Origin: Phyllosticta citribraziliensis
Taxonomy: Eukaryota
Reading direction: 5' to 3'
NCBI RefSeq assembly: GCF_038025025.1
Contig: NW_027117340.1
Coordinates: 1,922,001 to 1,986,000, forward strand
Length of the DNA stretch: 64,000 nt
Shown: piece after piece, positions 30,250-62,326 of the stretch
Layout of the letters: every line of letters starts with the position of its first letter
Position numbering within the stretch: position 1 is the first letter of the stretch
Made by a program: the position numbers and the translations under genes
Notes under the pieces: generated by a model
What the model was told of the DNA's origin: nothing
The model's database searches: none
Seen by the model: only the letters and a program-made list of their open reading frames with translations

Positions 30250-30458
30250 AGTAAAAGTCGTGGCACACACAATCTCCCACTCACTACAACAATGCTTGAA
30301 TGCTCCCTATCAGTCGCCAGTACGGGATATGAATGCTCCCTATTAGTCGTCGGTATTAGGGTCTTGACTGCCCTGACCACATACTCTGGCCCATCCTGAG
30401 GGCGATACTGATTCCCGACCTGAATCTTGTGTGTGCCACGACTTTTACTACCAAGCCT
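30250..30458. mobile_element. MITE-like fold-back element, copy A
   Basis: Perfect 23-bp inverted repeat AGTAAAAGTCGTGGCACACACAA (30250-30272 / 30427-30449). It encloses a direct repeat TGAATGCTCCCTAT(C/T)AGTCG with a 33-bp period. Confidence 0.7.
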
Positions 30459-30463
30459 CGGTC

Positions 30464-30627
30464 GGTGTCAAAAGGAGTACCCTTTGGCACGGTGGCTGCA
30501 TCTTGGGAGCATTCTTTACTACAACATCTGCGCCTAGGGAGTCGACGTCCGCTATCATGTTTGCGCCTTGGGGAGTTGTCGTTCAATATTGCCGCTAGGC
30601 CTAGGTAGTGTATTTTCTCACGACACC
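30464..30627. mobile_element. Degenerate fold-back element, copy B, adjoining copy A
   Basis: Starts GGTGTCAAAAG; core GGCTGC-N6-GGAGCATTC at 30494-30514; ends GACACC. An internal imperfect repeat TGCGCCT..GGGAGT has a ~34-bp period. Confidence 0.45.
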
Positions 30628-31065
30628 TACTGTGGTGGGTTTTCCATCTTCTCTATTTTAAAACTCTCCTAATGTCATATCTCTCAATTCACTCTTGCAG
30701 TTGCTCGCCGACTCTCCTGTCAACGCCGTCCTTTCGTCATCACCAAATTCGTCAGCAGAGACATTTTATTACCAAGCCTCTTGCAGCATCCCCTGGAAGT
30801 ACGACTTGCGAAAGCGTGCCGCCATTATGGGGCCAAAACTGCCTTGCCGTACAGCACCGCATCGAGGCTTCGCACGAGGTCGCAGCAGGCTGGGGCCGAA
30901 ACGCTCTCTATCTTGAGGGCTCAGCACTGCTTACCAGCACCCGTGTAACAACATATGCAGCCATCTGCTCTTGAGTATGATCAGGCTGAGATCTGACCGT
31001 TGGTTAAAAGTTCCGTGATTCGGCGACTGGAACTTGGGCAATTCCAAGTCTTAGTCCAGTCCAAC

Positions 31066-32674
31066 ATGGGTCTCGAAGATATTGTGTTTTTCAACTTGGC
31101 AGACGGGAAAGACTGCGATGTGGATCCCGACATAGCTGGCATAGGAGTATGTTACGATGCTGTCAACCCCCATTCATGCATCTTGCTAATTTATCTCTCA
31201 GGTGGTGTCTTCTTTCTTTGCCGCCGCTCTCATGACAACCTTGGCGTCGATATATGCAGCAATTTTGGACGGTTTGATCGGCGAAGCTACTGTCCTTCCT
31301 GATTGGATCAACAGGAGGCTTCAACAGAAGGGTGATAAAGTCGAAACATACAAGTTCCACCGTGAGGTGTGTAGACTCGGCACCGACACATCATGATTGC
31401 TGATTGGGAGCGTTTAGGTGGTAGAGAAAGTCATGATCACACTCGCCGACCAACAGCTCATGACCGGCTATGCCATAGTCATAAGTGGCTACATCCGCGC
31501 CAATCGATCCAACCCACGAATACCAACGTGGGACCCCACGCCGGACACTTCGTACCACGCAAAGCTTCGTGACGCGCATTTTGACCTGATAATATTCCTC
31601 TCCTGCCTTTCGGCCAGTAGTCACTTGGCCAGCGTGCTTGTGCTGAAGAGATATTTCAAGAAGAGCAAGGTGGTCATGTCCATCCGAATGACACTCATCG
31701 TCTGCTTTACGATCTTGCTCGCCGTCACCATTGGTCTTTCGCCGCCCCTGAGCTTTGGTTATCGCATCATTTATGGCAAATCGCCCAACGAGCCTATATA
31801 CAATCTGAAACTAACCAAGACGGTATCTCTCTCCATTCTGGTTATGTACCTGGCAGTGGCGAGCTTTTTCGTCGCCCTTTTTGTCGAAGAAATCCACGAG
31901 AAGTGGAACACGATCCTCGGTCTCTTAGGCTCACGATTGGGTCCACGTCGACGACCCACAGTGACGAGGACCGGGCGGCTTTCTTCGTGGGGCCTCTCGG
32001 TCTTGCCGACTGTCCAGTTCATCTCACAGCTCTTTTTCTTCACATTTGCTTTTATTCTAGCCGCGTCGCAAAAGTTTGCAGAGCCTCCTTCCCATGAAAA
32101 TCAACCAAAAATGTGCTCTCTCGACAGCGCCGAGGCCAACGTCTGGGGGTTTGGGCAGACCCTCCCCATGTTCTTCCTGCTGCAGCCGGTGCTCACCGGA
32201 ATAGGCGAATACTACGGTTCGTCAGCGAGATCAACATGCAACGACAGACACTGACAAACAACAGATATCAAAAAACAAAAGGCCAAAGACAAGACTGATT
32301 CCAAGGGACATTCGTCGACGACGAACATGCTGAGTCCACCACCGCAGAGCCCCGCGTCTTCGGCATACTCGCTCCCAATGCACCGCATCAGCCTCGACCT
32401 CGACAGAACCCAACGCCTCTCGGGCGATTGGCACAGGCGAAGTCCTTCAATGGTCTCGTTGCCAATGAGAAATAGCTACGAAATGGCAGAGGAGTCTCCT
32501 AGCCTAGCGGCATCCGTTGATGTCGAAGCATCAAGACAAAACTCCGTGCAGAAGACGCAAAACAACTCGCGCGTGTCAACCCCAAGGCAACAAGACGCTA
32601 GTGACGCCTCGTCCTACGGAGACAATCCAGCACTGCTGGAGAACCTCTGGTACCCGAAATCTGACAGGCCGTGA
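31066..32674 (+). CDS. Multi-pass membrane protein of unknown function, paralog B
   Basis: Exon 1 reads MGLEDIVFFN...DVDPDIAGIG. Later motifs are AAILD, ITLADQQLMTG, SSHLASVLVLKRYF, QKFAEPP and VWGFGQ. The last exon joins ORF 32327-32674. Confidence 0.8.
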
Positions 32675-33815
32675 GAGTGTGTTGATGGAGATGGGCGAGG
32701 CAGTATGAGGAGGGACGTTCTGGAATGCATACAGCGCACCATCCAGCGAATCAAAACGACATCTGAGGAATTCATGCCACACAGTCATCTAATGGACAGC
32801 CTCAACTGCGCAACCAGCACGGCTCGGCCGAACCCAACACACAGCGGTCATCGCCATCAATGCCGTCGCCTTCGATCGCAATCTCGTCGCGAAACCATCC
32901 GTCTCACCACCATGCCGCTCTTGCGTCGTATTCCAGCAATCCAACACAATCGATCGCAATAAACCCTCACCACTTGCTCGAACACTCAATTTAATCTCGC
33001 ATTCCCTCGTCGCCACCCACTCTCTGACTCGAAGCGCACTCGGAAATCCACACACGCAAGACGTGCTGCAGCACAACGTGTTCAACACCATTATTGGATT
33101 CGAAATCAGCTTGCCTTGCTTTGCGCATATCCCATCATCCCACACGCCATCTCCCCATCTCGCCACCCCCAACCGGAGCCGTGCCGAAGGAAGGGAGGCA
33201 AGGAACAGAGAGGTAGGGTGTGCCACGCACGCACGCACGAGTGTGGCGGCCCACGGGTGCTGGTTGGGGACCACAAGGAAAATTCAAGCATCCTAGCATT
33301 CCTGAGAGGGTGTGATGGCATGCACGTGGCTGACTGGCTCTCTGGCCAATGGAGATATCGGTGATTCGGCGATTGAGGCAGGCAGGGCAAGGAGCATTCC
33401 TCAAATTACCCAACCATGATGACGACGACGACGACGGGAGGTGTGTTGTGCTCCGCGATAAACTTTGCTATGCGGGTTGCTCTTGCGCACGGCTGGTAGT
33501 CGAGGATTGAGGGCTGGGGTGTTTGAAGTTTGAGGTACTGATTCATTGGCACATTGAGGCTTTGAGGATAATGTGATGATCGCTCTGGGACGAGGTAGAA
33601 AACTGTCTGGTATCTTTTCTTGCTGTATACTATTTCAAGCCAGAAATTTACTTTGACGCTGTCTATGTCTGTAAAAATTTATGCTGATGCTGTACTGGTA
33701 TGTCATCTGTCTGTACAATGCTCATGCAATGCTGATGCTCCGAAGCCGTGAAAATGCCACACAAAAGCCGCCGTCATGCTGAATGCTCTTCCTCATCCTC
33801 TCACGTCCAACAAAA

Positions 33816-35213
33816 TTAACAGCCGACGCCAAAGTCCTTGCAGATCTCTCTTCCCTGCGCCTTGATGCCACTGACCAACCAGAGGCGGTTGTTGGTAAAA
33901 ACAAGCACGCCGCCGGGGATGAAAGCAAAGTTGTTACTCGTCTCGCCAATGTAAATCTTGCCAATGAGAATGCCCTCGGGGTTCCAGACGTGGACGCCGT
34001 CGCCATTGGCGACCCACAGGTTGCCTTCCGTGTCAGCGTGGATGCCGTCAGGGACGCCGTTGTCGGCGAAGGCAAACGTGCGTCGGTTCGCGAGCCGCTT
34101 GTTGTCGATGATGTCGTACGCGTAGACGGTGCTGGGCCGCGTGTAGTTGAACTGCATCCATTGCGCGGCACCACTGTCGGTAACGTAGCTGTAGATGTGT
34201 TAGCTCTCTACTAGGGGATGGAGTGGAAGGGGAAGGACGCACAGAGTCTTTTCGTCAGGAGAGAATTCAAGGCCGTTGGGCTCGACAAAGCCGTCAGCTA
34301 CCACTTGGATGACACCCGTGCCGGGCTCGAAGCGGTAGACCTGCTTGGGAACCGTGGCTTCGGGTCTGAAGTACTGGAACCTGTTTGGGGGAATGATTGA
34401 TTAGTTGCGAGTCAGGGGTAGATGGTTAAAAGGGGGCGAAGAGCTTGGCGTACCATCCGTAGTCGGCATCAGTGAACCAAATGTCGCCCGTCTGGCTGTG
34501 CTGGCGCACGTCGTTGATGGACGAGAAGTTGCGGCCGCCTAAGAAAGAGTTGAGGATCACTTCGGTCTTGTTGTTCGCGACGTCGACGGACACAAGCGAA
34601 GATGGGTGCTCCTAAAGCGGGTCAGCAATGCTGGACAAACCACAGTGGTCCAAATCCACAGATGATTTTCAATCTTACAAGGTCGCCCTCGTCTGCCCAA
34701 ACTTGATGGCGCGGCGGGGCCGAAGTGTTAGATCCCGGAGGATAGTACGAAGTGCCACCATTTGCGTTCCAGAGGTCGGGGTATGCGGTCGATTGAATGG
34801 ACCAGTCGTCAAGTGACAGGATGGTGATGTTGATATTGTCAGGGGGAGGACCGACGTCGTAGTTGGACGAAATAATCATGGTGTTGGTCTCCTTGTTGTA
34901 CACACCACCCTATTTGGAATGGTTAGCTTTTGGTCGGCATTAGCGTCCGGCTGGATGACGTGCCTCGTGAAATGCCTGGTGCGAGTAGTTGCCAATCAGC
35001 TTGGCCGTCGCGTTGGGGCCCAGCAAGTCTTTGAAGCTATCATGGTAGCTCAGCAAGGAAACTGCTGGTTCTACTCCGCTGGTTGCTGGAAGGGTAGAAA
35101 AATAGCTCGGGTTTGTGGCAAGTGCCAACAAATCGACTACACAAGTCAGAATCACAAGAGCAAGGCTGAGGGATTTCTGGGACAGTACCGCTGACGAACG
35201 GAACGGCAGCCAT
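33816..35213 (-). CDS. SMP-30/gluconolactonase (lactonohydrolase) beta-propeller protein; multiple introns
   Basis: Motifs AFHEGGVY, NANGGT, NFSSINDV, IWFTDADYG, PNGLEFSPD, GVPDGIHADTEGNLWV and GDGVHVWNPEG. The start codon is uncertain. Confidence 0.88.
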
Positions 35214-36501: not shown

Positions 36502-39448
36502 ATGCCACTCTTTTTCTCCAGCATCGCTGTGGCGCTGCTTTTCCTTTTCCCCAACTCGCTTGCTCTCCCACACCAAGCCGTGAATGATTTGCGGCCAAGA
36601 CAGACAGCTTCGGCCCCTGCCGGAGCATCAAGCTCCACGGCCGATCAATTGATTGAAGATATTGAGCGCCTGAACCAGACTCTGGTAAATACGAATCAGG
36701 CACTTTGGGTGGATAGAAGACTAAAGCAACACAGACCGACCTCCCAGAAGACGCCTACAATTTCTTGAATGAAGTAGGCGACAAGGTAGAAGCGCTGGAG
36801 AGTTTGTTTGCAAGCCTCCTCGGCATCTCCACATCTGCGAGATCCTCAGCGGCATACGCAACGCCAAGTCCATCTGCTTCTGCATCCCGGAGCGTCTTCA
36901 ACTCTTCCTCACCTGTGCTTACTCCGGCCATCCCCACCAACGAGCCGTTTCTCACCATACTGCCTATCCTTGAGTCGCTTATACCGACCCTCACTCCGAC
37001 GCCAGGGAACAGCACCATCTCTCCTCTCAACACTTCACTGCCAGTTGTGCCTTCGGTAAATAGCACTTCGACCCCAGTCACAAGCTTTTTGGTACCTTCG
37101 GCTCCATCGTATCAAACGCCAAACATTACATCAACGCCACTGGTGTCTACACCGACAGCGCTGAACCTCACTACGCCTTCAATTCTGACACCGACCCCCT
37201 CTTTGGCGAACGTTACGACGCCGGTGGTTTCCTTGCCAGTTGCGTCCAACGTTACTACACCTTCGCTGGCTCCTTTGATTCCCAGTCCATCCTTGGTGAA
37301 TCTCACGACGCCAGTAGTTTCCTATCCGGCACCATCCAACGTTACTACACCTTCGCTGGCTCCCTTGATTCCCAGTCCGTCCCTGGCGAACTTCACAACG
37401 CCAGTGGTTTCCTATCCGACACCATCTAACGTTACTACGCCCTCGCTCGCTCCCAGCCCTTCGTCGGTAAACGGCACAGCACCACTGGCTTCCTACGCTG
37501 CTCCATCAAACATTACAACGCCTTCGATGGCCCCTATAATTCCCAGCCCATCCTTGGCAAACGTCACGACACCGCTGGTTTTGCCCACGCCTTCCAACGT
37601 CACTGCGCCCGTGGTCTCACCTGCAGTGCCCAGCACAACACTGGGCTCTCTGAGCACAGGAGCCCCCCTCAGTCCAAGCTCGTTTTCGAGCGCTCCCTAC
37701 TCCAATATTACCAGTCACGTGATTCCACCGTATCAAGCTCCCACGTTCAGCTACGCCCCCCTGACCCCTGACTCGACAAGCGTTGGAACAGTTAGTTATT
37801 CCTCCCTTTTGCCTCCTCTGGTCCCATCCCTGGCCCCACTTTCTTCAAACAGTATCAGTCAACTTCCCTTGATCCCTGTTCCTACAAGTAGCGATGGCCC
37901 TTTCAGCAACTATCCTCTTCCTTCCCTCCTTCTACCTTCTCCCTCAGTCAATGGATCCATTCTCCATATCCCGACCCGAATGCCAATTCCACTCTCTGCC
38001 CTCTCGGCTCTCAATGCTAGCTTGGCAACCCGGACTGCCAACGTGAGCTATGCCACCCCCATCATTTCTACCTCTCTTCTGTCATCTCTAGTCACCTCCG
38101 TCCTTGGAGGCTCAGTCACTACAGTCTATCTTTCAGTAAGCTAAAGGCTGCATTTCCAATCCTCCATTTCTTTATTAATTCCTTTACATCAGACCGAGAC
38201 CCTCACAACGACAGTATGGGTGTCGCCAACCCCGTTGGCATCTCCACCCTACCGAAACTCGACGAGTGAGGAACGCTCGCTCGCCTTGGAGGACGTTTGA
38301 CTGACTTTTCGCAGCCCTCTTCAACCCCACTGGTACCAGCTAGAAACGTTTCGTTCGACCCTCTTGCTCGCAACAACATCGCCTTGTACTATAATCCACA
38401 AGAAAACAGCTCGCCCCTTGACCTCGAAAACTTTTGCCGAAATAATTCCAACTTTGACGTCATAAATTTACCCATCATCTCCGGCTTCAATGGCTCTCTT
38501 CCCATCATCACCGATTTTCCAGGCTGCGGCCCTCTGGACGAACTCACTGGCCTCCGCGACTGCACTGAACTTGGATCCAGCATCTCAGCGTGCCAGTCCC
38601 AAGGCAAGAAGGTCCTTATCAGCTTGACTGCCGGCCGCTTCAACCAAAATGGCAACACGACAGCAACACCAACAGACATTGCGCCCAGCGTTAGTTCGCC
38701 TTCGGTCACCGCCCTTGCCTACACTCTCTGGTCCATGTTCAGTGGGCAACGCCTCAACGGCTCGACATTTGCCCCGCAGCCACTCGGTAGCTCCACGGCC
38801 GTCGACGGCTTCGGTATCGAAGACGACCTGGCGCTCGCCTATCCCTTCTACTACACGCTGTCTGTCGAGCTGCGGCGCCTCTTCTCCTCCCCAGCCATCT
38901 CCACTCGCATTTTCCGCGGCGCCACACCTTCGCTGCTGTCGGTTGCGCAACCTTGCGTCCCGCTCACGGCGCAAGCGTCAGCCTCGCTGCCGCTGTTCGA
39001 CCTCGTCTACCTGCGCACGCAGGGCACTGATTGCGCATCGAGCGCCGACGAGCTGCGCGACGCGACCGAGGCCTGGACCAGCGCCTTACAGACAATCAAC
39101 CTCGAGCTGCAGCTACAGGAGGGCGTCGTTCGTGCCAACGAAACCAAAATCTATCTTGGCGACTTGTTGCTGAGCGGTGGTGCGGTTGCCGACGGAGAGG
39201 GTGCATCCTTCAGAGCTGCCAATGGCGTTGGCCCTGGCTCTGTCATCGGCGCTGCTGCGACTGCTGCGCTGGACAAGGCCCAACAAGCTCAATCTGCGGC
39301 GTCCTTCGTGGACAAAATTGACGCGCTGTGGAGCGAAAAGCCGCGCGTGGCCGACTTGGGTGGTGCTGCCGTCTGGGTCGATGGTGCAGATACAGCCGTG
39401 GTGAGCGAGTTCCTCGCAAGCTTGAAGGGCGCCATGACCGTGCCGTGA
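36502..39448 (+). CDS. Secreted Ser/Thr/Pro-rich mucin-like protein with a C-terminal degenerate GH18 (class III chitinase-like) domain
   Basis: Signal peptide MPLFFSSIAVALLFLFPNSLA, then an S/T/P-rich region. GH18-like motifs follow: NIALYY, ISACQSQGKKVLISL, LWSMFSG, PLGSSTAVDGFGIED and LGGAAVW. Joining of the exons into one gene is inferred from splice signals. Confidence 0.75.
37195..37610 (+). repeat. Coding tandem repeat with a 90-bp (30-aa) period: SNVTTPSLAPLIPSPSLxNxTTPVVSYPxP
   Basis: TCCAACGTTACTAC recurs at ~37245, 37335 and 37425 (the last with one mismatch), with further degenerate copies downstream. Confidence 0.9.
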
Positions 39449-40353: not shown

Positions 40354-42423
40354 TCAATTCACATCCCTCGAATGCTCCAACACGCCCTTCTTTTCCACAA
40401 TGACGTCCGTCTCCCGTGCAGAGCTGTCGATATCAGTCTCCTCGACTGAGGTCTGGTCGTATTGCTCTTTTCCTGCTGCTTGCTTCCGCCAGTACCACCG
40501 CTCCACGAATCCCATGACCAGGGAGCACCAGATGGTCAGCGCGACGACGAAGACGAGAGCCGCTGGGTACCCGTGCGTTTTGCGGTACGTGGGAGCATCG
40601 GACGCGGGGAACATGTATTGCGAGAAGGGCGTGAAAAAGGCGCTGTGAGGTTGTTAGACTAGTTTAATGTGGAAGAATCTCTCCAGCCCAACAAAGTGGA
40701 GCAGAGAGGAAAAATGTTACTCACTTTCCGATAGACATCATCATCGCCATCACAAAGGCGCGAAGCTGATTGTCACCACCGCAAAGACTGTTGACCCATC
40801 CGCTGAGCAGCGGCGAAAAGCAGCCGTACGACCCTTGCATAAAGAAGGCCGCCATCTTGAGCGCCGTGCTGGCCGGCCATACCACGTAGATGACGTAGCA
40901 AAAGACCATGACGGAGCCGACGAACGCCATGACAGGCGCGCGGCTCCCAATCAGGTCGCTTGCCGTGCCGCTGCCGACCATGAAGAAGAAGTTGACAGCG
41001 CCAACAACAGTCGGGATATTGTTGATTTGCGGAACCGAGTAAACGTTGCTGCCATCGGCACGCTTTTCACTCTTGAGCCACAGCGCCATCCATGTTTGCA
41101 CGTTCGTGCCGCAGGTGAGACACCATAAGCTGTAGAAACGGGGTCAGCAGATATCCACAGATTCGGATAGGGGGACCTCTCACCTCCACGCAATGCAAAA
41201 GACATAGAGTTGCCAGCTCTTTGCGATGCGTTTGACTGCATCCCAGTCTAGTTTGCCCCATTCTTCCCTTCCTTCCTCGCGGATACGCTCGCGTGCGCGC
41301 TCTTTCTCCCATTCTGTCAACCAAAACGCCGTTGTCGTCGATGGCGTGTCCGGGAAGAACACCATTCCGTAGATAACGACAGGCATAGCTAAACACGCGT
41401 CGAAAACAAACAGCCACCTCCATGCGCTTAGACCTCCTACTCCGTCCATCCCGGTGTAAAGTCCCGACTGGAGATACCCAGAGAACATTTGGCCGAGCAC
41501 TCCGCTGATGACGAAGAAGGCGGAGCGGCGTCCCAGCTCTGACGCACGGTACCACGAGCCGATCTATGGAGGGTTAGTATCTGAACAAGGACCATTGCGG
41601 GGATTCGTGTAAAAACAGAAGACGGAGTAGCGCGCGGGGAAAAGGGGAAAAGGGTGGGTTTTGCGGAGCCGAGCTGTTCAGGCGCAGACCGAAGGCGAAG
41701 AGGGGAAGAAGAAAAGCATAAGGACTGAAGAGCGGGGAAATAGGAGTGTGGATGTGGCTTCGCAGATCTCCACTCCCGTCCCAGGTTCAATTGCTTGTCG
41801 ATTTAGCCTTTAAGGTTGTTCGGGACAAGCTTTTCTCGGAAAAACAGGCTGCAGCGGTTCTGGCAAGGAAAGACTCGAAAGAAGAGCCACAGGAGACAAA
41901 AGATGAAAAGCAATTTCACTCACCACATAATGTAGCCCTGGAAGAGCTGCAGACTCAAACATGCCGATGAAGAAACGCAAGACGTAAATCTGCCACGCGT
42001 GGTCCGACTTGTAGATGCCTAGGACGAAGAACGACCAGGTAAGCAGACACATTGGAAGCCATATGCGCGGCCGAACCACTGTCAAGATCAGATTCGAGAT
42101 GGGAGCGCCGATGATGTATCCAATGTTGTAATAGGTGGTAAACAGATTAAGTTCATTGCCGTCTGCTTTCAGTCAGCACTTTGCTTGTGCGCATTAGAGC
42201 AGTGATTTGGACACTCACACAATTTAAGCTCTTCCTTCATGCCAGAAACGTATGCGTTGGAGACATTGCCCGTATCCAGGTATTTGATGAAGAAACACAA
42301 GCAGCTGTATGTCAAGATGAAAATGTCCAGCTTGCGAATCAGCCATTTCTCTTCTTTACTCGTGCCCGGCTCGTGCCAGTGAAGCAGCGATGGTCTGGCT
42401 GGCCGAGCTTTGCTGCTAGACAT
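40354..42423 (-). CDS. MFS transporter of the allantoate/pantothenate (Dal5/Fen2/Liz1-like) family; multiple introns, one ~355 nt
   Basis: Motifs EEKWLIRKLDIFILTYSCLCFFIKYLDTGNVSNAYVSGMKEEL, FESAALPGLHY, GQMFSGYLQSG, GGLSAWRWLF and FFPDTP. Confidence 0.92.
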
Positions 42424-42937
42424 GGTGGCGGCTGTGTTTGAGGAAGCGCCGCTGCCGGTGTACTGCAAAAGCGCCGCGGCGACCACACGGCTTCTTCAGC
42501 ATTTTCTAGTGCTACTCTTTTATCGCCACGCTACCTTGGCATTGAAAAGCTGGAGCGTTCGTGTCGTCTGTCGAATGAAAACTCTGGATGGCGCAATCAG
42601 TTCGACGACGGCTCAGTATTCTGTTTTGGTCGGGCAAGAGTGGGGTTTCGGTTGAGATAGGCATGCCGACGCCGGGGCGATGGCCGGACTTTGTTCACAG
42701 CATGACTGGCTATGCGATTTGCCATATTCGCGCAAGTATCTGACATCCAGAAGCTTTGGTGGGTGTTGCGCTCGTCAAAATCCCGAGTTGTGTCGAAAGT
42801 TTGGTGTGTGCCGCCGTTTCCTAGCCCTTGAAAATCCAAGGAACATCAGAAAAACGTGCTCGCCGAAAGTCAAGTAAGTAGGTCGTTTCGGGCGAAAACA
42901 TATCTCAAAATGCTCATTAATCACAGTAGATCGCAAA

Positions 42938-43970
42938 ATGCCAAGGGTCACTCTGAACGGAGCGAATTTCGAATACAGCTTGAAAGGTCCAGAGAACGCA
43001 CCTCTTGTCATCCTTCTCCACGGAGGTCGCGGATTTGGTAAGTTGAATCGGCAACTGCAGACTGAGGAGAGACTCATTCAGACAGGTGACCATCGCTCGG
43101 ACTTTGCCGCATTTCAAGGGCTCTCCAGCGACCATCGAGTTCTCGGATTCGACTTCCGCGGCCATGGATTGAGCTCGTCCACAAAACCGTACACGTTCAA
43201 GCAACTAGTCGATGACATTGAAGCCTTCCGCCAGCATTTTGCCGGCACGGAAAGAGCAATTGTTGCTGGAGGTAGCTTTGGAGGATATCTTGCGCAGCAA
43301 TATGCCATCACATATCCGGAAAAGGTGTCACACCTAATCTTGCGAGGCACAGCTCCATCTCACCACCGTACGTATGCAGCCCTGCTTGTCGAAAGCGCTG
43401 ATTGAGACCGTGCAGATGAAGAAGAGGCCATCGCGACCTTCAAGGCCCGTTTGTACAGAGCCCCAAACGCTTCTTTGGCCATGCTGGAGAAGGTGTTTTC
43501 AAAATTCGAGGATGATGAAGAGTTCCGTTTGATCATGTTTGCTCTGGGACCTCTTTACGTCGAAGAATACAACGCGGATGCTGCACTGAGGAAGAACCGC
43601 AACACCGTCTTCCGGGCGGAAACTCATAGTAAGAGGCTCATGAAGAAGAGATGTTACCGCCGCGCTGACAATGTTTGGTAGACGACCTGTACAGCGAAGG
43701 CGAAAAGTATTTTGATTATCGCAACGACCTGGTCTCGGTCAAGGCCAAGACATTGGTCATAGTAGGAAGCGAGGACTGGATCTGCCCGCCAAGTACGTCG
43801 CAAAATCATGGAAAGAGTCCCAGCTGACGTGCTTGACAGCCCAATCGAGGAGCATTGCGGAGCGCATTCCAAAGGCGCGTTTGGTGGTGGTTCCGGGAGC
43901 AAATCACTCGGTCCAGGCGGAGAAGAACGATGTCTTCATTGGCGAAGTAAGGAAGCTGTTGGCGGCATGA
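42938..43970 (+). CDS. Alpha/beta hydrolase, proline iminopeptidase-like; 5 exons
   Basis: Oxyanion motif LHGGRG, FDFRGHG, nucleophile elbow GGSFGG, acid VGSEDWICP and histidine GANHSV. Confidence 0.9.
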
Positions 43971-43980
43971 TGTGGTACCA

Positions 43981-44156
43981 CAGTGGATATTGAAAGAAAT
44001 GAGGCCTGCTCAGTCTACAGCTGCAGCAACAAACAACTCCCTGTGCGCAATTACGATGGCTCACGACTGCTCACTAAGCGCAACAGTCATAGAGAATGAA
44101 TGCTCCCTACGCGCAGCTGCATCACTGGAATGTCTCATTTCTTTCAAATCCCACTG
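43981..44156. mobile_element. Fold-back element, copy C
   Basis: Inverted repeat CAGTGGATATTGAAAGAAATGAG / CTCATTTCTTTCAAATCCCACTG. The minus-strand core is GCAGCTGCGCGTAGGGAGCATTCATT. Confidence 0.65.
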
Positions 44157-44468
44157 GAGATGGAGTGTGGTGACAGGAACGATGGAAAGAAGGATGGGAA
44201 GTGTTTGGGCGCAACGAACTAGCCGACAGACTACCCGGCGATAAGCCCACTGCTCCGACGTCGGCCGCCGGATCACGCAATCTCAGACCGACCGTGAGCA
44301 ACCACACGCTCTCTCGTAAACTCCACCCAATTCGGCTCGGCAAACGATCCCGATAACGATCATTTCGCCGGCCTTTGCTCTTGGTACCTCGAACGATGGA
44401 GAATTCTGTTGCGTCGCGACGTGGGATGACCACGCCTGATTTTCCATCTCTCCACGTGAAACCTGACA

Positions 44469-47400
44469 ATGGCTGAGAGAGGAATCTCCATTACCATTGG
44501 TGAGCCACTTCTATGCTAATGAAATGGAACAAAAGCTGACCTGAAAGACCGTGGTGGAACATTTTGCGATGTCTGGGCAACGACTGCCGACGGGAGAGAG
44601 TTCGTCTTCAAGCTTTTGTCCGAGGATCCGAGTGCATACAAAGATGCGCCGACAGAGGGCGTCAGAAGAGTACTGGAGCTCGTGACTAGATCATCACTGC
44701 CAAAGAATGAACCAATCGACGGAAGCTTGATCGAGTCAATAAGAGTCGGCACCACCGTTGCAACAAAGTAGGTCAACTTGATGAATTCTCCCCGGAGCCT
44801 GCGTATCCATGCTGACCCAACAGCGCGCTTCTCGAACGCAAGGGAGAAAAGATTGCGTTGCTCACCACAGATGGCTTCAAAGATGTCTGTCGCATTGGAG
44901 ATCAGACGCGACCAAAGCGTAAGGACTGCAGCCATTCAGCCATCTCTTGGGACTCGCACTGACTGCCTTCAGTATTCGAATTGAACATCAAGAAACCTGG
45001 TGCCCTTTACTCAAAAGTCGTCACCATTGATGAAAGAGTTACCGTCGAAGACTATATTCTCAATCCATCTCCAGTGCCCATCGATATCGCGAGTGATCCT
45101 GCCCTGGTCAAAACAACCAGCGGTGAGATTGTGCGAATTCTCAAACCTCTGCAGGATGTGCAGGTAAGAGAGAAGCTGCAGGCTCTGTTTGACGAAGGAT
45201 TCCGGTCCGTGGCTGTTGCTTTTCTTCACTCATATATCTTTCCAGGTTTGTTCCGCGCAGCAGCACCTCAATCACTTCTAACAAAGAGACAGAACACGAA
45301 CGAAAGGTGGCAGAGATTGCTCGCCAAATCGGGTTTGAATTCGTCTCCCTTTCTTCGGATTCTAGCGCAAACATTAAGATTCTGAACCGTGCTACGTCTG
45401 CGTGTGCCGATGCATATCTTTCACCTCACGTAAAGCGCTACGTCGATGGATTCCTCTCTGGCTTCTCAAAACTGCCCAAAAGAGTCGACTTTATGCAGTC
45501 AGATGGCGGTCTTTGCACTGCATCCAAATTTACTGGCTTGAAAGCAATTTTGAGCGGCCCGGCCGGCGGTGTTGTGGCCATAGCCAAGACCTGTTATGAT
45601 CCTTTAGAAGGGAGCTCCGTTATTGGGTTTGACATGGTAAGTTTGAAATCCAGAATCGAACGTACTAGAGCTCACTCTTCTACAGGGTGGAACAAGCACA
45701 GATGTTAGCCGATTCGCCAAGAAATTCGAACATGTCTTTGACACCAACATTAGTGGGACGACCATTACTGCGCCCATGCTTGATGTCCGGACAGTCGCCG
45801 CTGGCGGAGGCTCTATCCTCAGTTGGCGGAATGGATTATTTGTCGTTGGACCAGAAGTAAATCCCCAGACCTCGTTGCAAAATTGTTCCTGACAGTTCGA
45901 AGAGCGCAGGAGCAAACCCAGGTCCAGCCTGTTATCGCAAGGGAGGCCCATTGACTGTAACGGACGCAAATCTCTTCCTTGGTCGACTGCTCCCTGAAAG
46001 GTTTCCGTCGATATTTGGCCCGTCTGGGGACCAGCCTCTGGATGCAGAAATTGTCAAACAAAAATTCCAGGAACTAACTGCGACCATCAACAACTCTTTC
46101 GATAGCGAGGAATTAATGACGCCGGAAGAAGTTGCTTTCGGCTTTTTAGCAATGGCAAACGAAACAATGAGCCGCCCGATTCGGAACATCACAGAAGCAA
46201 GGGGATTCACCATAAGCTCGCATAACCTTGCAAGCTTTGGAGGTGCAGGAGGTCAGCACGCTTGCGCCATCGCTCAAATTCTGGACATTCCCCGAATCAT
46301 CATCCACCGGTTCTCGTCGATCCTCTCTGCCTACGGCATCGGTCTGGCAGATATTGTTGCAGAAACCGCCGCACCATCAGCATGCCGATACTCGGAAGAC
46401 AACTTGAAAGATATTCTCGTCCAGTTTGAGGAATTGAAAGCGAAGACGACAAATGATCTGGTCTCCCAGGATGTCCGCCAAGAGCTCGTAGAGCACGAAT
46501 GCTTCCTGAACATGAGATATGAAGGATCGGACACAAGCCTTTCCATACGTCAGCCAGAGAACGACGACTTTCAGACGTCTTTTGTTGAAACGCATCGTCG
46601 GGAGTTCGCCTTTGAGCTGGCCCGCCCAATCGTGGTCGATTCTATCCGTGTACGCGGTGTCGGCAAGAGCAGAGATCAGGACACACAATCCGCCAGTCTT
46701 TTCCAGGAATTGGAAAAGCTGCAGAGGCTTCCTGCGCCAGAGGTACAAAGTACACAATCGGTCTTCATACAAAATGCCTGGATCGACGTGCCGGTATTCG
46801 AGCTTCCTTTGCTCGACAAAGGAGCTGTCCTGTTTGGGCCGGCCCTCATTGTCGACAATACGCAAACCATTCTCGTCGATCCTGCCTGGAAAGTCACCGT
46901 CCTGCAATCTCACATTCTAATCGATGCTCCTGTTAAGGAAAAGAAGGAATCCGGCGATCAGAAAGGAGTCAGCCCCGTCGAACTGTCCACTTTTGCCAGT
47001 CGTTTCATGAGTATAGCGGAACAAATGGGGAACACGCTCCAGAGGTAAGAGCATCAAGGTGGGTGTCAATGGCACCGCCGGGAACTGCGGCTGCGTCCAC
47101 GGAGCATTCGTTCCCTGCCACGGCGTTCTTTTGACACCCAGTGTACATGTTTCCACTGTAGACCAAAATTACTAATTTTGACCAGGACATCCATCAGCAC
47201 ATCGATCAAGGAAAGATTGGACTTTTCGTGCGCTCTTTTCACACCTGATGGAAAGCTAGTAGCCAACGCACCACACATTCCAGTCCAGTAGGTCACTGAC
47301 TCACAGGAAAATGTCAAACTGCTGACCGAACGTCCAGCCTGGGCTCCATGCAATTTGCGATCCAATACCAGCATCAGCTATGGGATGGTAAACTTGCTCC

Positions 47401-49018
47401 TGGAGACGTTCTCCTGACAAATCACCCCGACTGCGGAGGCACTCATCTGCCTGACCTGACGGTCGTGACGCCGGTCTTCAACGACGGCCAGCTCATCTTC
47501 TACGTGGCCTCGCGAGGTCACCACACGGACATTGGTGGCATCGGCATTACAAGCATGATACCAGATTCGAAGTTCCTTTGGCAAGAAGGCCTCGCAATTA
47601 AGAGTCTCAAAATTGTCAGCGGCGGTGTGTTCAGCGAAGACATAGTGCGCAAAGCATTTGCAGACGTGGCCAACATGCCCGGATGTAGCGCGACGCGCCG
47701 AATCAACGACAACATTTCTGATCTCAAGGCTCAAATCGCGGCGAACCAGCGCGGCATCACGCTGCTCCAAAGGATGTGCGGTGAATTCGGTACTCCCAGC
47801 GTCCAGAAGTACATGTACGCCATCCAAGACAACGCTGAACTGGTAAGCAAATTCACCTATTCAAGGCTTGGTAGCAAAAGTTTTGGCACACAGAACCTCA
47901 AATTGGGGGCGGATAGGGAGCATTCAAGCTACCCTGCAGGAGGGTTCTCAGGAGCGTTCATTAGCTCCAACATGCGGGGGCTCATATCTGGGTGTGCCAG
48001 GGCTTTGGCGACCGAGCCCCGTTCGCAGCGTTCAAATGGCTGATCAAAGGTTCAACAGGCTGTCAGGAATCTGCTGAAGCGCGTCGCAGCCTCTCATGAA
48101 GGGAAGGCGCTGCAAGCAATTGACTTCTACGATGACGGGACGCCCGTCGCGCTCCGCGTCAGTATCGACGGCGACTCTGGCTCCGCCGTCTTCGACTTTA
48201 CCGGCACCGGTCCACAGACTCTGGGCAACATGAACTCGCCCATCTCGATCACCCATTCGGCCGTCATCTATAGCTTGCGCTGCATGATCGACCTCGACAT
48301 CCCACTCAACCAAGGCTGTCTGGCACCAATCGACATCCGCGTCCCCAAGGGCACAATCCTCAACCCTTCTTCCTCCGTCGCCGTGTGCGGCTCGACCATC
48401 GCCAGCCAACGCGTGACAGACGTGATCCTCCGCGCCTTCAGAGCTGCCGCCGCGTCGCAAGGCTGCGCCAACTCGTTCGGCTGGGGCATGGGCGGCAAGG
48501 ACCCAGAAACGGGTATCACGACGCCGGGCTGGAACTACGGCGAAGCGCTCGGCGGCGGCAGCGGTGCCGGCCCTGGCTGGCACGGCACGTCGGCCGTCCA
48601 GGTGCACTCGACAAACACGAAGACGACGGACCCCGAGGTCATCGAGAAGCGCACGCCCGTCTTGGTGCGCCGCTACGAAGTCCGCGAGGGCACGGGTGGA
48701 CGCGGCGCCTGGAATGGCGGTGACGGCGTCGTCAGGGACATCGAAGCCCGCGTGCCGCTCAAGTTCAGCATTTTGAGTGAGCGCCGCGTGTACAGTCCGT
48801 ATGGCATGAACGGGGGCCGTGATGGCAGCGTGGGAAAGAACTTTTGGATTCGTTCGAACGAGGATGGCGAGCCGGAGACGATCTCGCTCGGCGGAAAAGC
48901 GGTTCTGAATGCGCAGAAGGGCGATAGGGTCGTCATTTGCACGCCTGGTGGCGGTGGATGGGGCGCTCCTGAACGAGATGCACCAGACGGAGATGTCAGA
49001 CCGTTGCCGACGCAGTGA
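44469..49018 (+). CDS. 5-oxoprolinase / hydantoinase-oxoprolinase family enzyme (fused A+B type); about 10 introns
   Basis: Motifs [90 protein letters not shown] and TPGGGGWG. Orthology to canonical OXP1 is not established. Confidence 0.95.
47060..47140. mobile_element. Fold-back element, copy D, inside oxoprolinase intron 47045-47185
   Basis: Terminal repeat TGGGTGTCAA / TTGACACCCA, inner stems CGCCG/CGGCG and GGAAC/GTTCC, core GGCTGC-N6-GGAGCATTC. Confidence 0.6.
47865..48018. mobile_element. Fold-back element, copy E, inside oxoprolinase intron 47843-48058
   Basis: Left arm GGCTTGGTAGCAAAAGTTTTGGCACACAGA pairs with TCTGGGTGTGCCAGGGCTTTGGCGACCGAGCC. It shares its arm and the 18-mer GATAGGGAGCATTCAAGC with copy A in reverse orientation. 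Confidence 0.7.
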
Positions 49019-49360
49019 TGAGTGGAAAGGCTACGATTGTTTCAAACGAGCGCTGTAGTGGAATGGCACGCGCGTAGTCTTGTTAGCAGAAACGGAACCA
49101 GTCAAAACCTCTGAGATTTCTCTCAACCTCCTGACGGCAACATGCATCCGTTTTTGAATTTCAATGCCTACATGTGTAACGTGCCTTCAAGAAGTGCCCT
49201 CGGATGTTGGTATAGCCAGTGAGCAAACGGCAAGAGTAAGAGCAAAGGGATGGACATGGCAAAGTCTCCTCCGAATCCCGACACATCATCAGGGCATTGC
49301 ACCCCAATTTGCAGCAAGAACTCACCACCCCCTCAATTCTGCCACGAGCCCTCTCAGTGC

Positions 49361-54934: not shown

Positions 54935-55742
54935 TCGTGCGAGACAGCGCCTTGCTTCTAGAGCGACACTCAGATGATCTCCTTTCTGGCTTAGCACAAT
55001 ACCCCAAATCAAGTTTGACAATTCGACAGTGGCCTACATGGCACTCGAAATGGCTCCCAACGACTTGTCATTACACCGTGAAAGATTGCGTCTATTCTTC
55101 CTCTGACTAGATGTAGATGGACACCCAGGGCCGATTGACCCCTTTCAGCCGCGTGCTACACGCAACGGCGCGTGGCTCGGAGCGATCCTAACTCTGGGCC
55201 CGGTCCCGAAACCAAGCCTACTTGGCACTGGTTTGCTCCTCGGGTACTCCCGACGACGTTCGAGGTTAACAAGCTTCCCGCCGGTCGACCCCGGGATCTT
55301 CGCTGGACCGCAACTGCCGAGACTTGACGGCGGACGACCACTTCGGATGTCAAAAGATGGAGCATGTCACTTCCTGGCCTTGCGCTTCGGCTTAGGGAGA
55401 AGTCGTTCTTCACCGCAGCTGCGTTCAGGGAGCAGTCGTTGAACACCGCCGCTGCGCCTGGGAACTGTCGTTTACTATTCTCGTTGCGCTCAGGGCGCTG
55501 CCATTCATTTCACGTCCACTGTACGGACACTGTTTGCAAAGCACCATTTCGACACAGGAACAACGATCGAAGGGTGAAAAATTGCAATTCTTGCGGCTAT
55601 TACAGAAACGCTATGAGATGCCACGCTAACTCCCCATTCAAGACTGCCTCTTTTCTGACCAGTAAACCTCTACTTGCGACGCCAATCCGTTGAGAAGAAG
55701 GAAAAAGAGAAGGGAAAGAAAAGCTTTTCCGAACAAGCGAAT

Positions 55743-56650: not shown

Positions 56651-59600
56651 CTTGATGGTCTTGCTTGGTTGGTGTCGAGGTTCAAGTCCAAGGTCTGTCG
56701 TGGTTTGTTGTCTGTGTAGAGAGGAGAACTGGAAAGAACAGCGGGCAAAGGTTTTGATTACTGCGGCGCTGGAAGTGACGAATGAGGAGGAGTGCCGAGG
56801 AGCTGTCTCGATGCGCCGAATGAAGGTGTGTTGTGTAGTGTGTGCCTGAGAAGCAAGTCACTGGGGAAAAGTCAAAAACATAAGTAGAAAGTTGGAGCCT
56901 GGAGGAGCATCAAGGCGTTCTGGTGGCTGTACATTTTTTGACCCTGTGTACCCACTTGTTTCGTTTATTCTTATCGTTTGCAAACGGTTCCTTCGTAAGG
57001 CGCAGCCGTCGGAGGGGTTTTTTTGGTGGTTGGAGCATTTGTCGTTTTCGTATCTGCCGATACGAAAATCATTCGTGCCTGAATCTGGCTAAAAGCCCGT
57101 GCAGGACCCACTCCTCCCGCGCTTCTTCCAAGGGCCTTGGCAACACGAGTACGATTATTCTTTGCCATCAAACATCCGCCGAATCTGATTGGACGCTTGC
57201 CTTCAACATGCGGACGGCAGGCGGCTCTGTCCGCCATTTGCGGCTAAAACCTTTTCTTGTCCCTGTCGAAAATCTTTCTTGGCCTTGACCACATCGATGA
57301 ACATTCGAATTCTCTTCTCAACAGTCAACCGTTGACAGGGAAAACGGCATTGAGCAGTTTCCTACCTAGCCATCATCGAGCAACGTCGATGCCTTCAACT
57401 CGCCGACATGTGGCACTTGCGAATCCCCAGCAAGAAAGGCGCAAGTTTCGCATCAGATGAAGGCAGGCTCTCTTTGTTGTTTGTCTGAAAGTCGGCAAGA
57501 GGATACCCACGGCGATCATACTCGGCTCGCATCCGTGTTCGTTCCTTCGGTTTCGGCTGTGTCTTCCAATTTTCCGGACCGCATTTTGCAAATATGCGGA
57601 GCATACATATGTGGCTGTCTAGAGCCCTGCATGTTACACGTGTTGCCTAGCTGTCCTACTGGCCCCTCATCCTGCGAAAACAACATCTGCTCCGCGCACA
57701 ACTCAGAATACGGGAAGAGCACAGCCTCGAATGGCTCGACGCGTCGGGACTCTGGTCTTCAGCGGCCCAGCCTCCCTCGGGCTTCCGATGTTCTTCGGTT
57801 TGCCGAACGGATGTCCGCATTTAAAACCGAGAGCAATCGCTGAATTCCTCCTGCTGTTCTGCTCCCACCCTTGAGTCGACGGGTCTGCCATTAACGTTTC
57901 CTGGACCAAATGTAGCAAACGGCAGAACGGCTTGGAAGATCGTCCATCTCCCTTCTGCGTCCCCACCAGGAGAGAGCATTAGCAGCAGTGCTTGCGTTGT
58001 TTGCGATTCGTTCAAGACGTCGTTGCACCGGAACTGATACTTCGGCTGCCATTCCAGACCAGAGAAGAACCACACATCGGATTTGAGGGTGGAGCTGCGT
58101 CAAGGAATCTTTCAATAGCTGCGTCACGGAAGAGATGGAAAACAAGACGTATCGTTGGGACATCCATGCGGAAAGATTGCGAAAACTCAGCCGGAGCGCT
58201 TGCTACGCTACCTGCGATGACGTTGGTGCGCAAGGCGGCCCGGAAAGAGATGACCACCGGCTCCGTTGCCGTCGTTATCAGGGCACCAGGCTGGATTTAC
58301 GCACTCTGGTGGTCCGGATTCGAATGAAAGACGATCTCTGAGCTATTCCCGGGAGCTCGAAAGCCCGAAAAATCGTAGTCACTTCAGGCTGCCGAGGCTG
58401 GAAGATTGCTGTTCTCAAGAACGTCATCAGCGTGGTGACTGGCATGGTCTATCGATGGAAAGACAACGTACAGCTAGTTGGTTTTGTGTGGGATGGCTAG
58501 CGCCGAACCGGACAAGCGGGCAGACGAATTGCGTCAATCCAGCTAGAAGCGACTCGGCGCATGCAGCAAGACGCTTCGAAGGCGATTTTGGCCTAACTGA
58601 CACCTCGATGTCTCGTACACTTTGCTGCCCTATTGGTGGTTCCGACAAGCGAGCTCTAATGCGCCTGACCTAGGAGCCGCGCTACTGTCTATTCCTCGGT
58701 TGATGCTCTCACGCCAAGGTCTCAAACGCACCCCAAGTGGCGAAGAGGAGAGTTGGAGGTACCTTCTCGATTGTCGATTGAGCCAGAATTCTAGAAGTAT
58801 CGGCAACCGCGGGATCGACCGAAGAAAGCTCCAACGGTCCAAGTCTTGTTCGCCGTCAAGCCTCGTCGGTATCTTGGCTACTCAGTCACCGACTTGGCTG
58901 GGCCCAGTAAAACACCACGATCCTCCAGACGGACTCCCTGAATCTTTTGCAAAGACTAGCTTTTATGCCTCGGTAAGATAGTGGACCTTGGTAACGCCAT
59001 CAAACGGTCTTGCCAATGTTTTTCTCTCTTCTGCGCGACCCACGTGGCCGTTGAGGCCTAGAGGTTCTCCGTTGTCGTCACTTGCCTGGAGTAGCCAGGG
59101 CCTTCCCATCGGCCTCGCGTGCAAACAACAGACTGCATCCATGGCGGCCGTAGCGGACGTAACCGAGGACCTGGAGCCTTGGGATCCGGGCATGACGGCC
59201 ATGCGCAATTCGAAGTTTCATGCCAGCGCTAGAACGATCCCGCTTTCCGGAACCCGGGGAAAGTGAGATCGTTGCCTGTGGCCTTGGAGATACTGACCAA
59301 GCGGAGGTGATAGATGATACCTCCTTTTACCACGGTGACATCCAGGGGATCTGCATCCCCCTCTGCAGATGAGTCCGGGGAGCTGTCGTCCAACACCACA
59401 GTTGCGCCTGAGACACTGTCGTTTACCACTGCTGTTAGACTGAGGGAGCATCAATTCTTTTGGCATCTACTGCGCTGAAGATCTGCGACGCGGAGTTGCC
59501 TACCTTCCGGTGCTAGACCAGAAGCACGTTAGTCTCCGACGCCCAAAGTTCCATGTTTCGCTGAGGCTCGAGTTATCCACGATACACCGGTCAGTCTTGG

Positions 59601-59879
59601 TCGCTTTGGTGCTAGCGCTCTTGGATACGCAGAGGTCCCGTATACTGAAGCGGAGGTATAGGCGATTTTTCGCCGACTGTTGCTTGAGCTTGTTGACGTC
59701 TAGGCCAGTTCCTGTTCCAAGGCAGCATCGTGAAGTAGGCCTCCGGATCCTGGAAACGCCCGAGAGGGTGTGGCAGTATACCTATATATCTGCTCTTGCT
59801 CTCCCTTATTTCCCTATCATCATCTCCACACACAACAAATCCAAACACACAGATCTTCCAAGCACACACAGATCTAGCA

Positions 59880-60645
59880 ATGGTTCTCAAGTCTTCTCTC
59901 GTCCTTTCAGCATTCCTTGGACTGGCTGCCGCAGCGGCTATCCCCCGATGTGACGAATTCGAGTCTGAACAGGGGACAATCAGCCGACGGTCGGATGTCG
60001 ATATACAGGCCGAAGTCGAAGTCGAACAAGACAACAAGGGAAAGATTGGCAAAGGAAAATGCGCCTCCGTAATGGTCGTCTTCGCTCGTGGGACGACTGA
60101 GATTGCTCCGCTCGGAACGATTGTGGGCCCTCCTCTCGAAACCGCATTAGAGGCCATGGTGGGCAAGAAGAAGGAGGTCATGGTCATGGGCGTGGACTAC
60201 CCTGCCGACGTTGCCGGATTCTTGGTGGGTGGTGACGCCAACGGGAGCGCCATGATGGCCGCGACGGTCAAGGAAATGGTGAAGAGCTGTCCAAATTCGA
60301 AGGTCGCAATGGTCGGCTACAGGTGAGATATTTCCTCCCTGTCCTGTTTTGCGTGGCCTCGGAATTCCAACTGACAATCTCTATAGTCAAGGAGGACAAC
60401 TCGTCCACAACGCAGCCGCACAGCTCGACACTGCCGTTGCCGCTCGGGTCTCTGCTGCCGTCATCTTTGGAGATCCAGACTTCCCCAAGCCTGTTCCAAA
60501 GATCGATCCGGAAAAACAAAAGGTCTTTTGCGCCAAGGGAGACGCCATTTGCAAGGGACAAGCCATCATCCTGCCTCCTCACCTGAGCTATGGTAGCGAC
60601 GCAGAGGCCGCGGCTCAGTTCATCATGGCCAGCTATGACGTCTAG
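59880..60645 (+). CDS. Secreted cutinase (CE5); 2 exons
   Basis: Signal peptide, VFARGTTE, GVDYPAD, GYSQGG split by the intron, IFGDP, CAKGDAIC and HLSYG; the catalytic triad is intact. Confidence 0.95.
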
Positions 60646-61150
60646 AGAGTACATCAATGTCGGGGCGTGGGCGTCACACCTTTTCTCTTCAGGGACTTTG
60701 CGATTCGTTGATAGATTTCTCTGCACCTAATTTTCCTGGCCCTTTTCATCAGCAAAGGCATAGCGTTTTAGCGTGGTAGTACAGGACGGCGTTGATGATA
60801 ATAGAAAGAGTCGACAATGGCCAGTATGCCTTTGTTCATGTGTGCCATGACAAACGATTCGCGGCGTGGAGGCGTCCGGAGACAACACCGGGATGACGTC
60901 TAGAGAGTACATCAATGTCGGGGCGTGGGCGTCACACCTTTTCTCTTCAGGGACTTTGCGATTCGTTGATAGATTTCTCTGCACCTAATTTTCCTGGCCC
61001 TTTTCATCAGCAAAGGCATAGCGTTTTAGCGTGGTAGTACAGGACGGCGTTGATGATAATAGAAAGAGTCGACAATGGCCAGTATGCCTTTGTTCATGTG
61101 TGCCATGACAAACGATTCGCGGCGTGGAGGCGTCCGGAGACAACACCGGG
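60635..61150. repeat. Perfect 258-bp direct tandem duplication
   Basis: 60635-60892 and 60893-61150 are identical by eye (ATGACGTCTAGAGAG...GACAACACCGGG). Confidence 0.95.
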
Positions 61151-62326
61151 TTTTAACCGTAGCGGAATGCAGGTGGCATTGCCAGCGGGCGACAGACAGG
61201 GAGCGTCCAACTATTCGAACATGGGACAACTGCGTCAAGTACGCCTTCCCGACGAAATATTGTAGACTCACACGCACAGTCCTCTCCTGCACTCGCATCC
61301 GTAGTGCCTTCAGGCCGCTTGAGAGCAGATAAGGAACCGCCATAACGGAGTCTCAAGAATCAAGGGGATTGTTGTGCATTCTCTACGCGATGGGCAAGCC
61401 TCAACTCATCGACTCCAGTGATCTCCGATTCCCAGTGTGGCAATTGCGAACGCAACGACTTTCCACAAGAGGCCTCGGAGAACTGGGCGAGCAGATGACC
61501 TCTTCAAGAGGGACGATAGATGACCGAGAGAATTGAGCGAAGAGGTACATCGGTGCGTGTTCTGGAGAGCCGTGAAAAACTGGACCAATAACCCACGCCA
61601 AAGCGCGACAGGACGATGTTACCCTGAGGCCGCTGTCCTCAAATCTGACCACATCGACGCCGAGTGATCCAGTGGAAGCGATTGACCTTCCGTCAGTGTC
61701 AGACCTAAGTTCAGGGCATCGGTTCCAAAATCTGCCGGATTAAAGGTTGACTTGCTGGCTTGAATCTCAGTTTCCACGAACAGCACCCACTGGTGCAAGA
61801 CGGCGTTGAAAACAGGCAATCAGTGTCGATGATATGGAGGTCGTTGATCATACGAGATCGCGCAAAATCCAAGATTCAGAAAGAGGTTTCTCAAGGAGCA
61901 TTCAAGCACGGGTTGGTTGTTCTGCGTAAGCTGAGAGGATCGTTTCTTCCCGTGCCCGGCCGCAGCGACGGACGGCATCCAGGCGGCATCCAGCGGTGAG
62001 CCTAATCATCGTCATGGCTTGGGATCGACACGAGATGAAAGACAAAAGGTTGTAGTGAGTTGAGATGACTGCGAGCCTTGGGTGGGTGAGTGACGGGGAG
62101 TATGGTCAATGAGCTGTGCCGGGTTTCTGCCGCTCCGCAGAGTCTTGGCCGCGAACCGGAGTCGACGATGCCGCCTGGCCTGATCCTGGGCACGGGCAGC
62201 CGCCCGCTCCTCAAGGTTCAAAACAACTCGAAGAACCTTTTGGCGTCCACTTGTTGGAGCCTCACTCGACATTCGCGACAGGATCTTGCTTCCAGCGTTC
62301 CCTCAAACCCCTTCGACATTGCCTCA

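Follow-up and report, generated by a model that had tools for sequence, protein, structure and literature searches.

Our analysis of a 64,000-nt stretch of DNA from Phyllosticta citribraziliensis (contig NW_027117340.1, positions 1,922,001 to 1,986,000; hereafter the window) reveals seven short fold-back elements, A to G, five of which contain the 9-mer GGAGCATTC. The window is nuclear DNA of Phyllosticta (Dothideomycetes) with spliced genes and one tRNA. [quoted passage not shown] The original prediction, made from the letters of the window alone, had proposed that the units form a dispersed family of two subtypes, non-autonomous and MITE-like, and this proposal is borne out by the arms of the elements, by their fold-back structure, by leave-one-out detection of the members, by contigs elsewhere that diverge from the window at the element ends, and by two inflated introns.

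The elements are non-coding, are 88–226 bp long, and comprise terminal inverted repeats that fold back on each other, with one to four direct, tandem units of ~33 bp between them. The five inverted-repeat units that were predicted to hold six copies of GGAGCATTC (A to E) are all present; F and G lack the exact 9-mer. Elements A and E form one subfamily. Element A (positions 30250–30463, minus strand) has perfect 23-nt arms at 30250–30272 and 30427–30449 and two 33-bp direct units, with the 9-mer at 30298 and 30331. Its right terminus lies at 30459–30463, and the outer part of its left arm (GGCTTGGT...) has been lost, since the consensus of the contigs that part from the window at 30253 keeps GGCTTGGTAGC and then turns random. 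Element E (47864–48018, plus strand, 155 bp) comprises the arm GGCTTGGTAGCAAAAGTTTTGGCACAC, a diverged inverted partner, and two units, one with the exact 9-mer at 47917 and the other with a one-mismatch copy at 47951. The 8-mer CCTATTCA is present ahead of the left arm in both A and E (30238–30249 and 47855–47863), although other copies diverge earlier.

Elements B, C, D, F, and G form the second subfamily (B–G). Element B (30460–30637, plus strand, 178 bp) has degenerate arms and four units of ~33–34 bp, with the 9-mer in unit 1 (30506). Element C (43978–44158, minus strand, 181 bp) has three to four units, with the 9-mer in unit 1 (44098), enclosed by 44-nt arms that are 70% complementary and start with CAGTGG (43981–44024 and 44113–44156). 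Element D (47058–47145, plus strand) is short, at 88 bp, and consists of the arms GGGTGTCAA... and ...TTGACACCC around one unit, with the 9-mer at 47101. Element F (59296–59478, plus strand, 183 bp) has four units and the right arm ...TTTTGGCATCTACTG. Element G (55341–55527, plus strand, 187 bp) has four 33-bp units, one of which reads GGAGCAGTC, and a right arm that ends in ...CCACTG followed by TA. When A, C, D, and E are folded as single strands of DNA, they are more stable than shuffled sequences and have paired ends (z-scores of −4.68, −4.15, −2.78, and −3.37, respectively). At 30455–30465, the right terminus of A abuts the left terminus of B or shares a few bases with it, as though one of the two had inserted right at the other's end.

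Membership in the family does not depend on the 9-mer. In particular, a profile trained on B, C, and D detects F (E = 3.4e-12) and G (E = 1.3e-10) at full length in a scan of the window, and leave-one-out models recover B (4.6e-15), C (1.4e-18), F (3e-19), G (9.9e-18), and D (1.7e-4), with a best match outside the elements at E = 0.003. A weak profile match at 15344–15455 (E = 0.003–0.03) lies within a long open reading frame (ORF) with an RRM match, has no arms, and was set aside as chance. Elements B, C, F, and G (178–187 bp) align end to end and have a common right terminus, ...CYACTG. The likeness that had been claimed among B, C, and D is reproduced by their mutual alignment, and the claimed likeness between A and E is reproduced by a 29-nt arm at 90% identity and an 18-mer around the core. 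The two subfamilies have in common an arm framework, GGT(R)(K)YAAAAG followed by TGGCAC at a variable distance, as well as a 12–14-nt core and a period of 33 bp. Because these features are common to both, A/E and B–G probably trace back to one ancestral element, and on this comparison of sequences a common origin is likely.

Copies of the elements are also present outside the window. We compared contigs of four runs (X1, X3, X5, and X8) with the window at 80% likeness; because GT..AG and CT..AC joints are present, the X1 and X3 contigs behave as RNA. Tens of contigs, from this organism and two relatives of it, are like the window at the element ends and turn unlike it beyond them. The family is present in at least three related organisms. 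Specifically, loose contig ends accumulate at 30253 (6 in X1, 7 in X3, and 12 in X5), at 30427 (14 in X5), at 30459, 30461, and 30463 (8, 18, and 19 in X5, with 2 and 4 in X8 at 30462 and 30463), and at 47864 (11 in X5). Summed depth in the bin containing A and B is 1743 vs ~640 in X1 and 1062 vs ~220 in X5, figures that are not copy numbers. Some of the contig copies carry one additional unit of 33–34 nt. A pattern built from the 25-nt arm has no match in a metagenome scan, and four loci that match the 18-mer around the core in a second such scan have unrelated contexts and a G+C content of 0.35–0.67, and were dismissed as chance.

The interior of the elements is repetitive. The unit reads roughly GYTGCGCYTAGGGAGC(ATTC or WGTC)GTT..., and GGAGCATTC is part of it. 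Tandem Repeats Finder reports a period of 33 bp in G, and A contains a 33-bp direct repeat. Autocorrelation at a lag of 33 nt is 0.37 in A, 0.40 in G, and 0.39 in F, and the autocorrelation at lags of 32–35 nt is reached by 1 of 2000 shuffles for A, 14 of 2000 for C, and none of 2000 for F and G, with weaker signals for B (51/2000) and E (60/2000). Each long element has three or four matches to a unit profile, spaced 33–34 nt apart and on a single strand. Among fungal MITEs, a tandem array of 33-bp units in the interior is unusual. One might suppose that the elements are instead pieces of a ~33-bp minisatellite-like array that recombination, segmental duplication, or another class of element (for example, of the Helitron type) has dispersed, with inverted repeats that are incidental. 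The differing number of internal units between copies would fit this account, as would the lack of a visible target-site duplication or transposase. However, the four full-length members, at 178–187 bp, can be aligned from one end to the other with both termini included, the arms pair in every element that was folded, other contigs part from the element sequence precisely where the arms end, and the seven copies have unrelated genes on their flanks. We consider an origin from such an array quite improbable.

The original prediction had singled out the 9-mer as a candidate protein-recognition site, and this part of it is not supported. Among the 21 units of the seven elements, the exact 9-mer is present in 6, GGAGC in 10, and GGGAG in 12, and GGAGCATTC proves to be the form that is retained by unit 1 of B, C, and D and by units of A and E; it is absent from two of the seven elements, F and G. 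The longest invariant run is 11 columns in an alignment of B, C, and D (reached in 9 of 20,000 column shuffles) and 9 columns in an alignment of A, E, B, C, and D (1 of 20,000). Long invariant runs are expected in these alignments because their members were picked for the 9-mer. In B, C, F, and G, a set for which the word was no criterion, no invariant run exceeds 5 columns, a length that 2272 of 20,000 column shuffles reach. Since F and G were found without the exact 9-mer, the apparent core owes something to the way in which copies were first picked out.

It is still conceivable, although unlikely, that the elements are MITE-like carriers in which the ~33-bp unit, with AGGGAGCATTC, forms a functional array of binding sites for a transposase or for a host DNA- or RNA-binding protein and is kept by selection in introns, leaders, and 3′ regions. 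Consistent with such a function, the 9–11-nt block is the longest invariant run in copies bearing the word, one-mismatch variants of the 9-mer are not enriched, the units are in tandem, as binding-site arrays often are, and the elements are transcribed within leaders, introns, and 3′ regions. Against it, the aligner anchors on the very word for which the copies were picked, the short run in B, C, F, and G is unremarkable, and most units lack the exact word. Transposase sites in Tc1-like inverted-repeat/direct-repeat ends are symmetric, unlike the units here, all of which point in the same direction within an element. We know of no binding protein for the unit. If the array were functional, the elements would have seeded such arrays into the leaders, introns, and 3′ regions of many Phyllosticta genes, with effects on expression or RNA processing.

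The 9-mer itself is over-represented in the window. The nine exact matches to GGAGCATTC are all at the coordinates and on the strands that had been given for them; the number expected from 100 dinucleotide-preserving shuffles is 0.91, and no shuffle reached nine. The predicted enrichment persists under Markov backgrounds of orders 0 to 4, for which 0.51–0.98 occurrences are expected, and GGAGCATTC ranks second in frequency among all 9-mers of the window. One-mismatch variants are at background (32 matches, including the 9 exact ones, vs 19.8 expected). After correction for 131,072 canonical 9-mers, the Poisson tail ranges from 6e-4 to 0.13, the latter under Markov order 4. The word count by itself is thus suggestive and only moderately strong, and the case rests on the surroundings of the copies.

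Three copies of the 9-mer are solitary and have no unit or element similarity in profile searches. The copy at 33391–33399 (plus strand) lies in a transcribed zone between two convergent genes, covered by X1 record 1 and X3 record 7, with nothing element-like around it and no unit-profile match at E ≤ 5 or E ≤ 10. The copy at 40370–40378 (minus strand) falls within the final codons of a minus-strand gene for a major facilitator superfamily (MFS) transporter, in its last ORF; it had been called coding, reasonably so, as it reads as codons near the stop of that ORF, translating as Leu-Glu-His-Ser 16 nt ahead of the stop, and it is most simply a chance occurrence. The copy at 61895–61908 (plus strand) is part of a 14-mer in common with element A and, judged by that similarity, may be a small relic. 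Three solitary copies do not greatly exceed a chance expectation of ~0.9, and chance likely accounts for one to three of them. The idea that all nine copies cluster by chance, with no common origin, draws on these solitary copies and on the corrected tail under Markov order 4, but it is refuted for the six copies that lie in elements homologous over 90–190 nt, and as an account of the whole set it is extremely improbable.

The elements had been placed in introns, 3′ untranslated regions, and intergenic DNA, and the contigs and gene context put them in introns, leaders, 3′ regions, and intergenic DNA. Elements D and E each lie in an intron of an oxoprolinase gene. The intron containing D (47045–47185, plus strand, 141 nt) is defined by a joint from 47042 to 47184 with GT..AG ends, and the intron containing E (47843–48058, plus strand, 216 nt) is defined by a joint from 47841 to 48058, each in both X1 and X3. 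The splice sites lie 13–40 nt outside the arms of D and E, and the residual introns without the elements are ~53 nt and ~61 nt, respectively; the 12 other intron-sized joints among those listed are 48–73 nt. The D and E introns resemble normal introns into which an element has been inserted, and they have been lengthened ~2.7-fold (from ~53 to 141 nt) and ~3.5-fold (from ~61 to 216 nt). Elements A and B are in a transcribed leader region (X1 record 1 begins at 30272). Element C is located between an alpha/beta-hydrolase gene and the oxoprolinase gene, at the end of the RNA contig that covers the hydrolase (X1 record 3, 42219–44165). A, B, and C are retained unspliced in RNA contigs. Element F is upstream of a cutinase gene, and G is between convergent EH-domain and RTA1 genes; all seven copies in the window are flanked by unrelated genes.

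The position of the elements in transcribed regions and their long hairpin folds could also point to a family of structured non-coding RNAs or cis-acting RNA hairpins within host transcripts, which the original prediction had offered as an option. RNAalifold, applied to four members, finds double changes in 12 of 41 pairs, although four sequences are too few to establish covariation. The option fares poorly otherwise. No element matches an Rfam family at the gathering score or even at E ≤ 5, the consensus fold of the four members is weak (−18.6 kcal/mol) and leaves the terminal arms unused (the left arm being poorly aligned in that set), the elements can point either way with respect to the genes beside them, and complementary arms are expected of any inverted-repeat transposon. 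A role as structured RNA is accordingly very unlikely.

Several observations weigh against the MITE-like reading that we prefer, or limit it. Mobility itself goes beyond the dispersal that is observed, and the contig figures are not copy numbers because X1 and X3 represent RNA and X5 possibly represents more than one genome. The window offers neither a transposase, as had been reported (a Pfam search with 88 ORF translations gives no match to a transposase family), nor an autonomous element; no element carries an ORF with a Pfam match. No clear target-site duplication had been reported, and indeed matching flanks are lacking at all seven copies, which are old. Only 2 of 10 arm ends in the B–G subfamily are adjoined by TA (the right ends of D and G). 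The left arms are far more decayed than the right arms, those of B, F, and G in particular. The link between the subfamilies consists of short similarities, and a unit profile from B–G alone reaches A and E only at E = 3.4 and 6.3. Among the joints and pieces listed, no empty site is present and no contig joins across an element; a joint from 30274 to 30427 (skipping 152 nt, with 22-nt sides) was tried as an excision and rejected as two inverted arms matching each other. Organism B carries E, ungapped, at the corresponding site (38 differences in 646 nt; X5 record 18), and organism D has the left portion of D (X8 record 25). It follows from these two occurrences that the copies examined are old and fixed, not polymorphic, and that the insertions predate the splits between the species.

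The MITE-like reading nevertheless suggests a course of events. The elements, built from terminal inverted repeats of ~20–30 nt around one to four direct units of ~33 bp, would have spread by cut-and-paste, with a transposase acting in trans; the CAGTGG-like ends, together with TA at 2 of 10 arm ends, suggest an enzyme of the Tc1/mariner type. Copies would have inserted into gene-rich DNA, including two pre-existing introns, and, at less than 400 bp, would presumably have been tolerated and then have decayed in place. In such a history, the excess of GGAGCATTC comes from common descent of the copies and not from separate selection of each site. In Zymoseptoria tritici, 13 MITE families are reported, 8 of them with TA duplications, mostly in gene-rich regions; MITEs shorter than 200 bp there lack the bias left by repeat-induced point mutation (RIP), short ones escaping RIP (PMC4522978).

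The remainder of the window contains further features. The last oxoprolinase exon has 96% identity to a Phyllosticta citrichinensis protein and 92% identity to a P. capitalensis protein. A match to the fungal C/D-box small nucleolar RNA (snoRNA) Afu_335 (66.9 bits; 14633–14724, minus strand) lies between two minus-strand ORFs with RRM domains, and this snoRNA is probably hosted in an intron of an RRM gene. An ORF at 11429–11869 (minus strand) contains a TEA/ATTS DNA-binding domain, as in regulators of the AbaA/TEC1 type; a TEA/AbaA-type CATTCY site was rejected as an account of the 9-mer, as a pyrimidine comes next in only 2 of the 9 copies. Tandem repeats of 36–51 bp at 22876–23105 encode a Gly/Tyr/Gln/Ser-rich stretch downstream of an ORF with a Het-C domain. 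At 37186–37536, about four tandem 90-bp repeats (64–100% identity to the reference copy) lie within a 475-codon ORF without a Pfam match; RNA-contig depth at 36.7–40.0 kb is ~10 times that of neighbouring regions (X1), and the ORF may encode a protein with repeats that is highly expressed. At 60635–61150, on the downstream side of the cutinase gene, a 258-bp unit is perfectly duplicated in tandem (100% identity), which could reflect a very recent event or an assembly artefact. The 12-mer CGAATCGCAAAG was considered and discarded, as 2 of its 3 exact copies are merely this 258-bp duplication.

For annotation of Phyllosticta genomes, our analysis provides a concrete repeat family with coordinates, ends, and unit structure, and the 33-bp tandem array could mark the family for tracing. 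The lengthened introns, and the residence of elements in transcribed leaders and 3′ regions, make the family relevant to gene prediction and possibly to the regulation of neighbouring genes, such as the cutinase gene. The family is otherwise an ordinary kind of genomic passenger and no new type of signal. In a search of the literature, we found no paper that describes MITEs in the genus, and a literature search for words from the elements returned only primers in unrelated papers. Two Phyllosticta genome papers, in the portions that concern repeats, give bulk percentages of transposable elements along with unclassified repeats (from REPET or RepeatModeler), and the family may already be an unnamed consensus in the published libraries.

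Among known systems, the closest parallels are with fungal MITEs. The mimp (miniature impala) elements are MITEs of Fusarium that are mobilised by the Tc1-like impala transposase. Both they and the elements described here are non-coding, have terminal inverted repeats, and lie near genes, and a CAGTRG-type motif that resembles the mimp end opens both arms of C as well as the right arm in B, F, and G. They are also alike in size, with B, C, F, and G at 178–187 bp and mimp at 180–220 bp (PMC5579170). However, the published 16-nt consensus of the mimp end (PMC5579170) has no match in the window at zero or one mismatch, and the same pattern at three mismatches touches only two element arms, with 74 matches in total vs 61 expected, a background level. 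Moreover, TA is present at 150 of 158 mimp ends (PMC3599309) as compared with 2 of 10 arms in the window, the cited texts do not describe mimp as having tandem units of 33 bp in the interior, and the mimp host belongs to another fungal class. The MITEs of Zymoseptoria tritici (Mycosphaerella graminicola) are found in the same class as Phyllosticta, the Dothideomycetes, and are likewise short (<200 bp), with inverted ends, located in gene-rich DNA, and too short for RIP; compared by description only, they also form superfamilies with common ends and different interiors, in the manner of our two subfamilies (PMC4522978). They differ in having defined duplications (TA in 8 of 13 families; PMC4522978), whereas none can be defined here.

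Other systems resemble the elements in single respects. Introner-like elements of Dothideomycetes are short, multi-copy, and intron-associated, as are 2 of the 7 elements here as regards introns, and are described as whole spliceosomal introns in many near-identical copies (PMC4457414). In contrast, D and E are confined to the central part of their introns, the splice sites lie beyond the arms, and A, B, and C remain unspliced. A Foldback-type transposon, with long arms of tandem subrepeats, was rejected, as the unit matches are on one strand and fill the interior and not the arms. REPINs, which are built from repetitive extragenic palindromic (REP) sequences, are bacterial and depend on a REP-associated tyrosine transposase (RAYT). 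They resemble the present elements in being short, dispersed, hairpin-forming repeats, and a REP/REPIN-like nature had been suggested; that suggestion falls, as it sets a bacterial system against a fungal nuclear locus with spliced genes, in which no RAYT-type family is found among the 88 ORFs. The elements do display several of the traits general to MITEs: they are short and non-coding, they have terminal inverted repeats, and their copies are dispersed among unrelated flanks.

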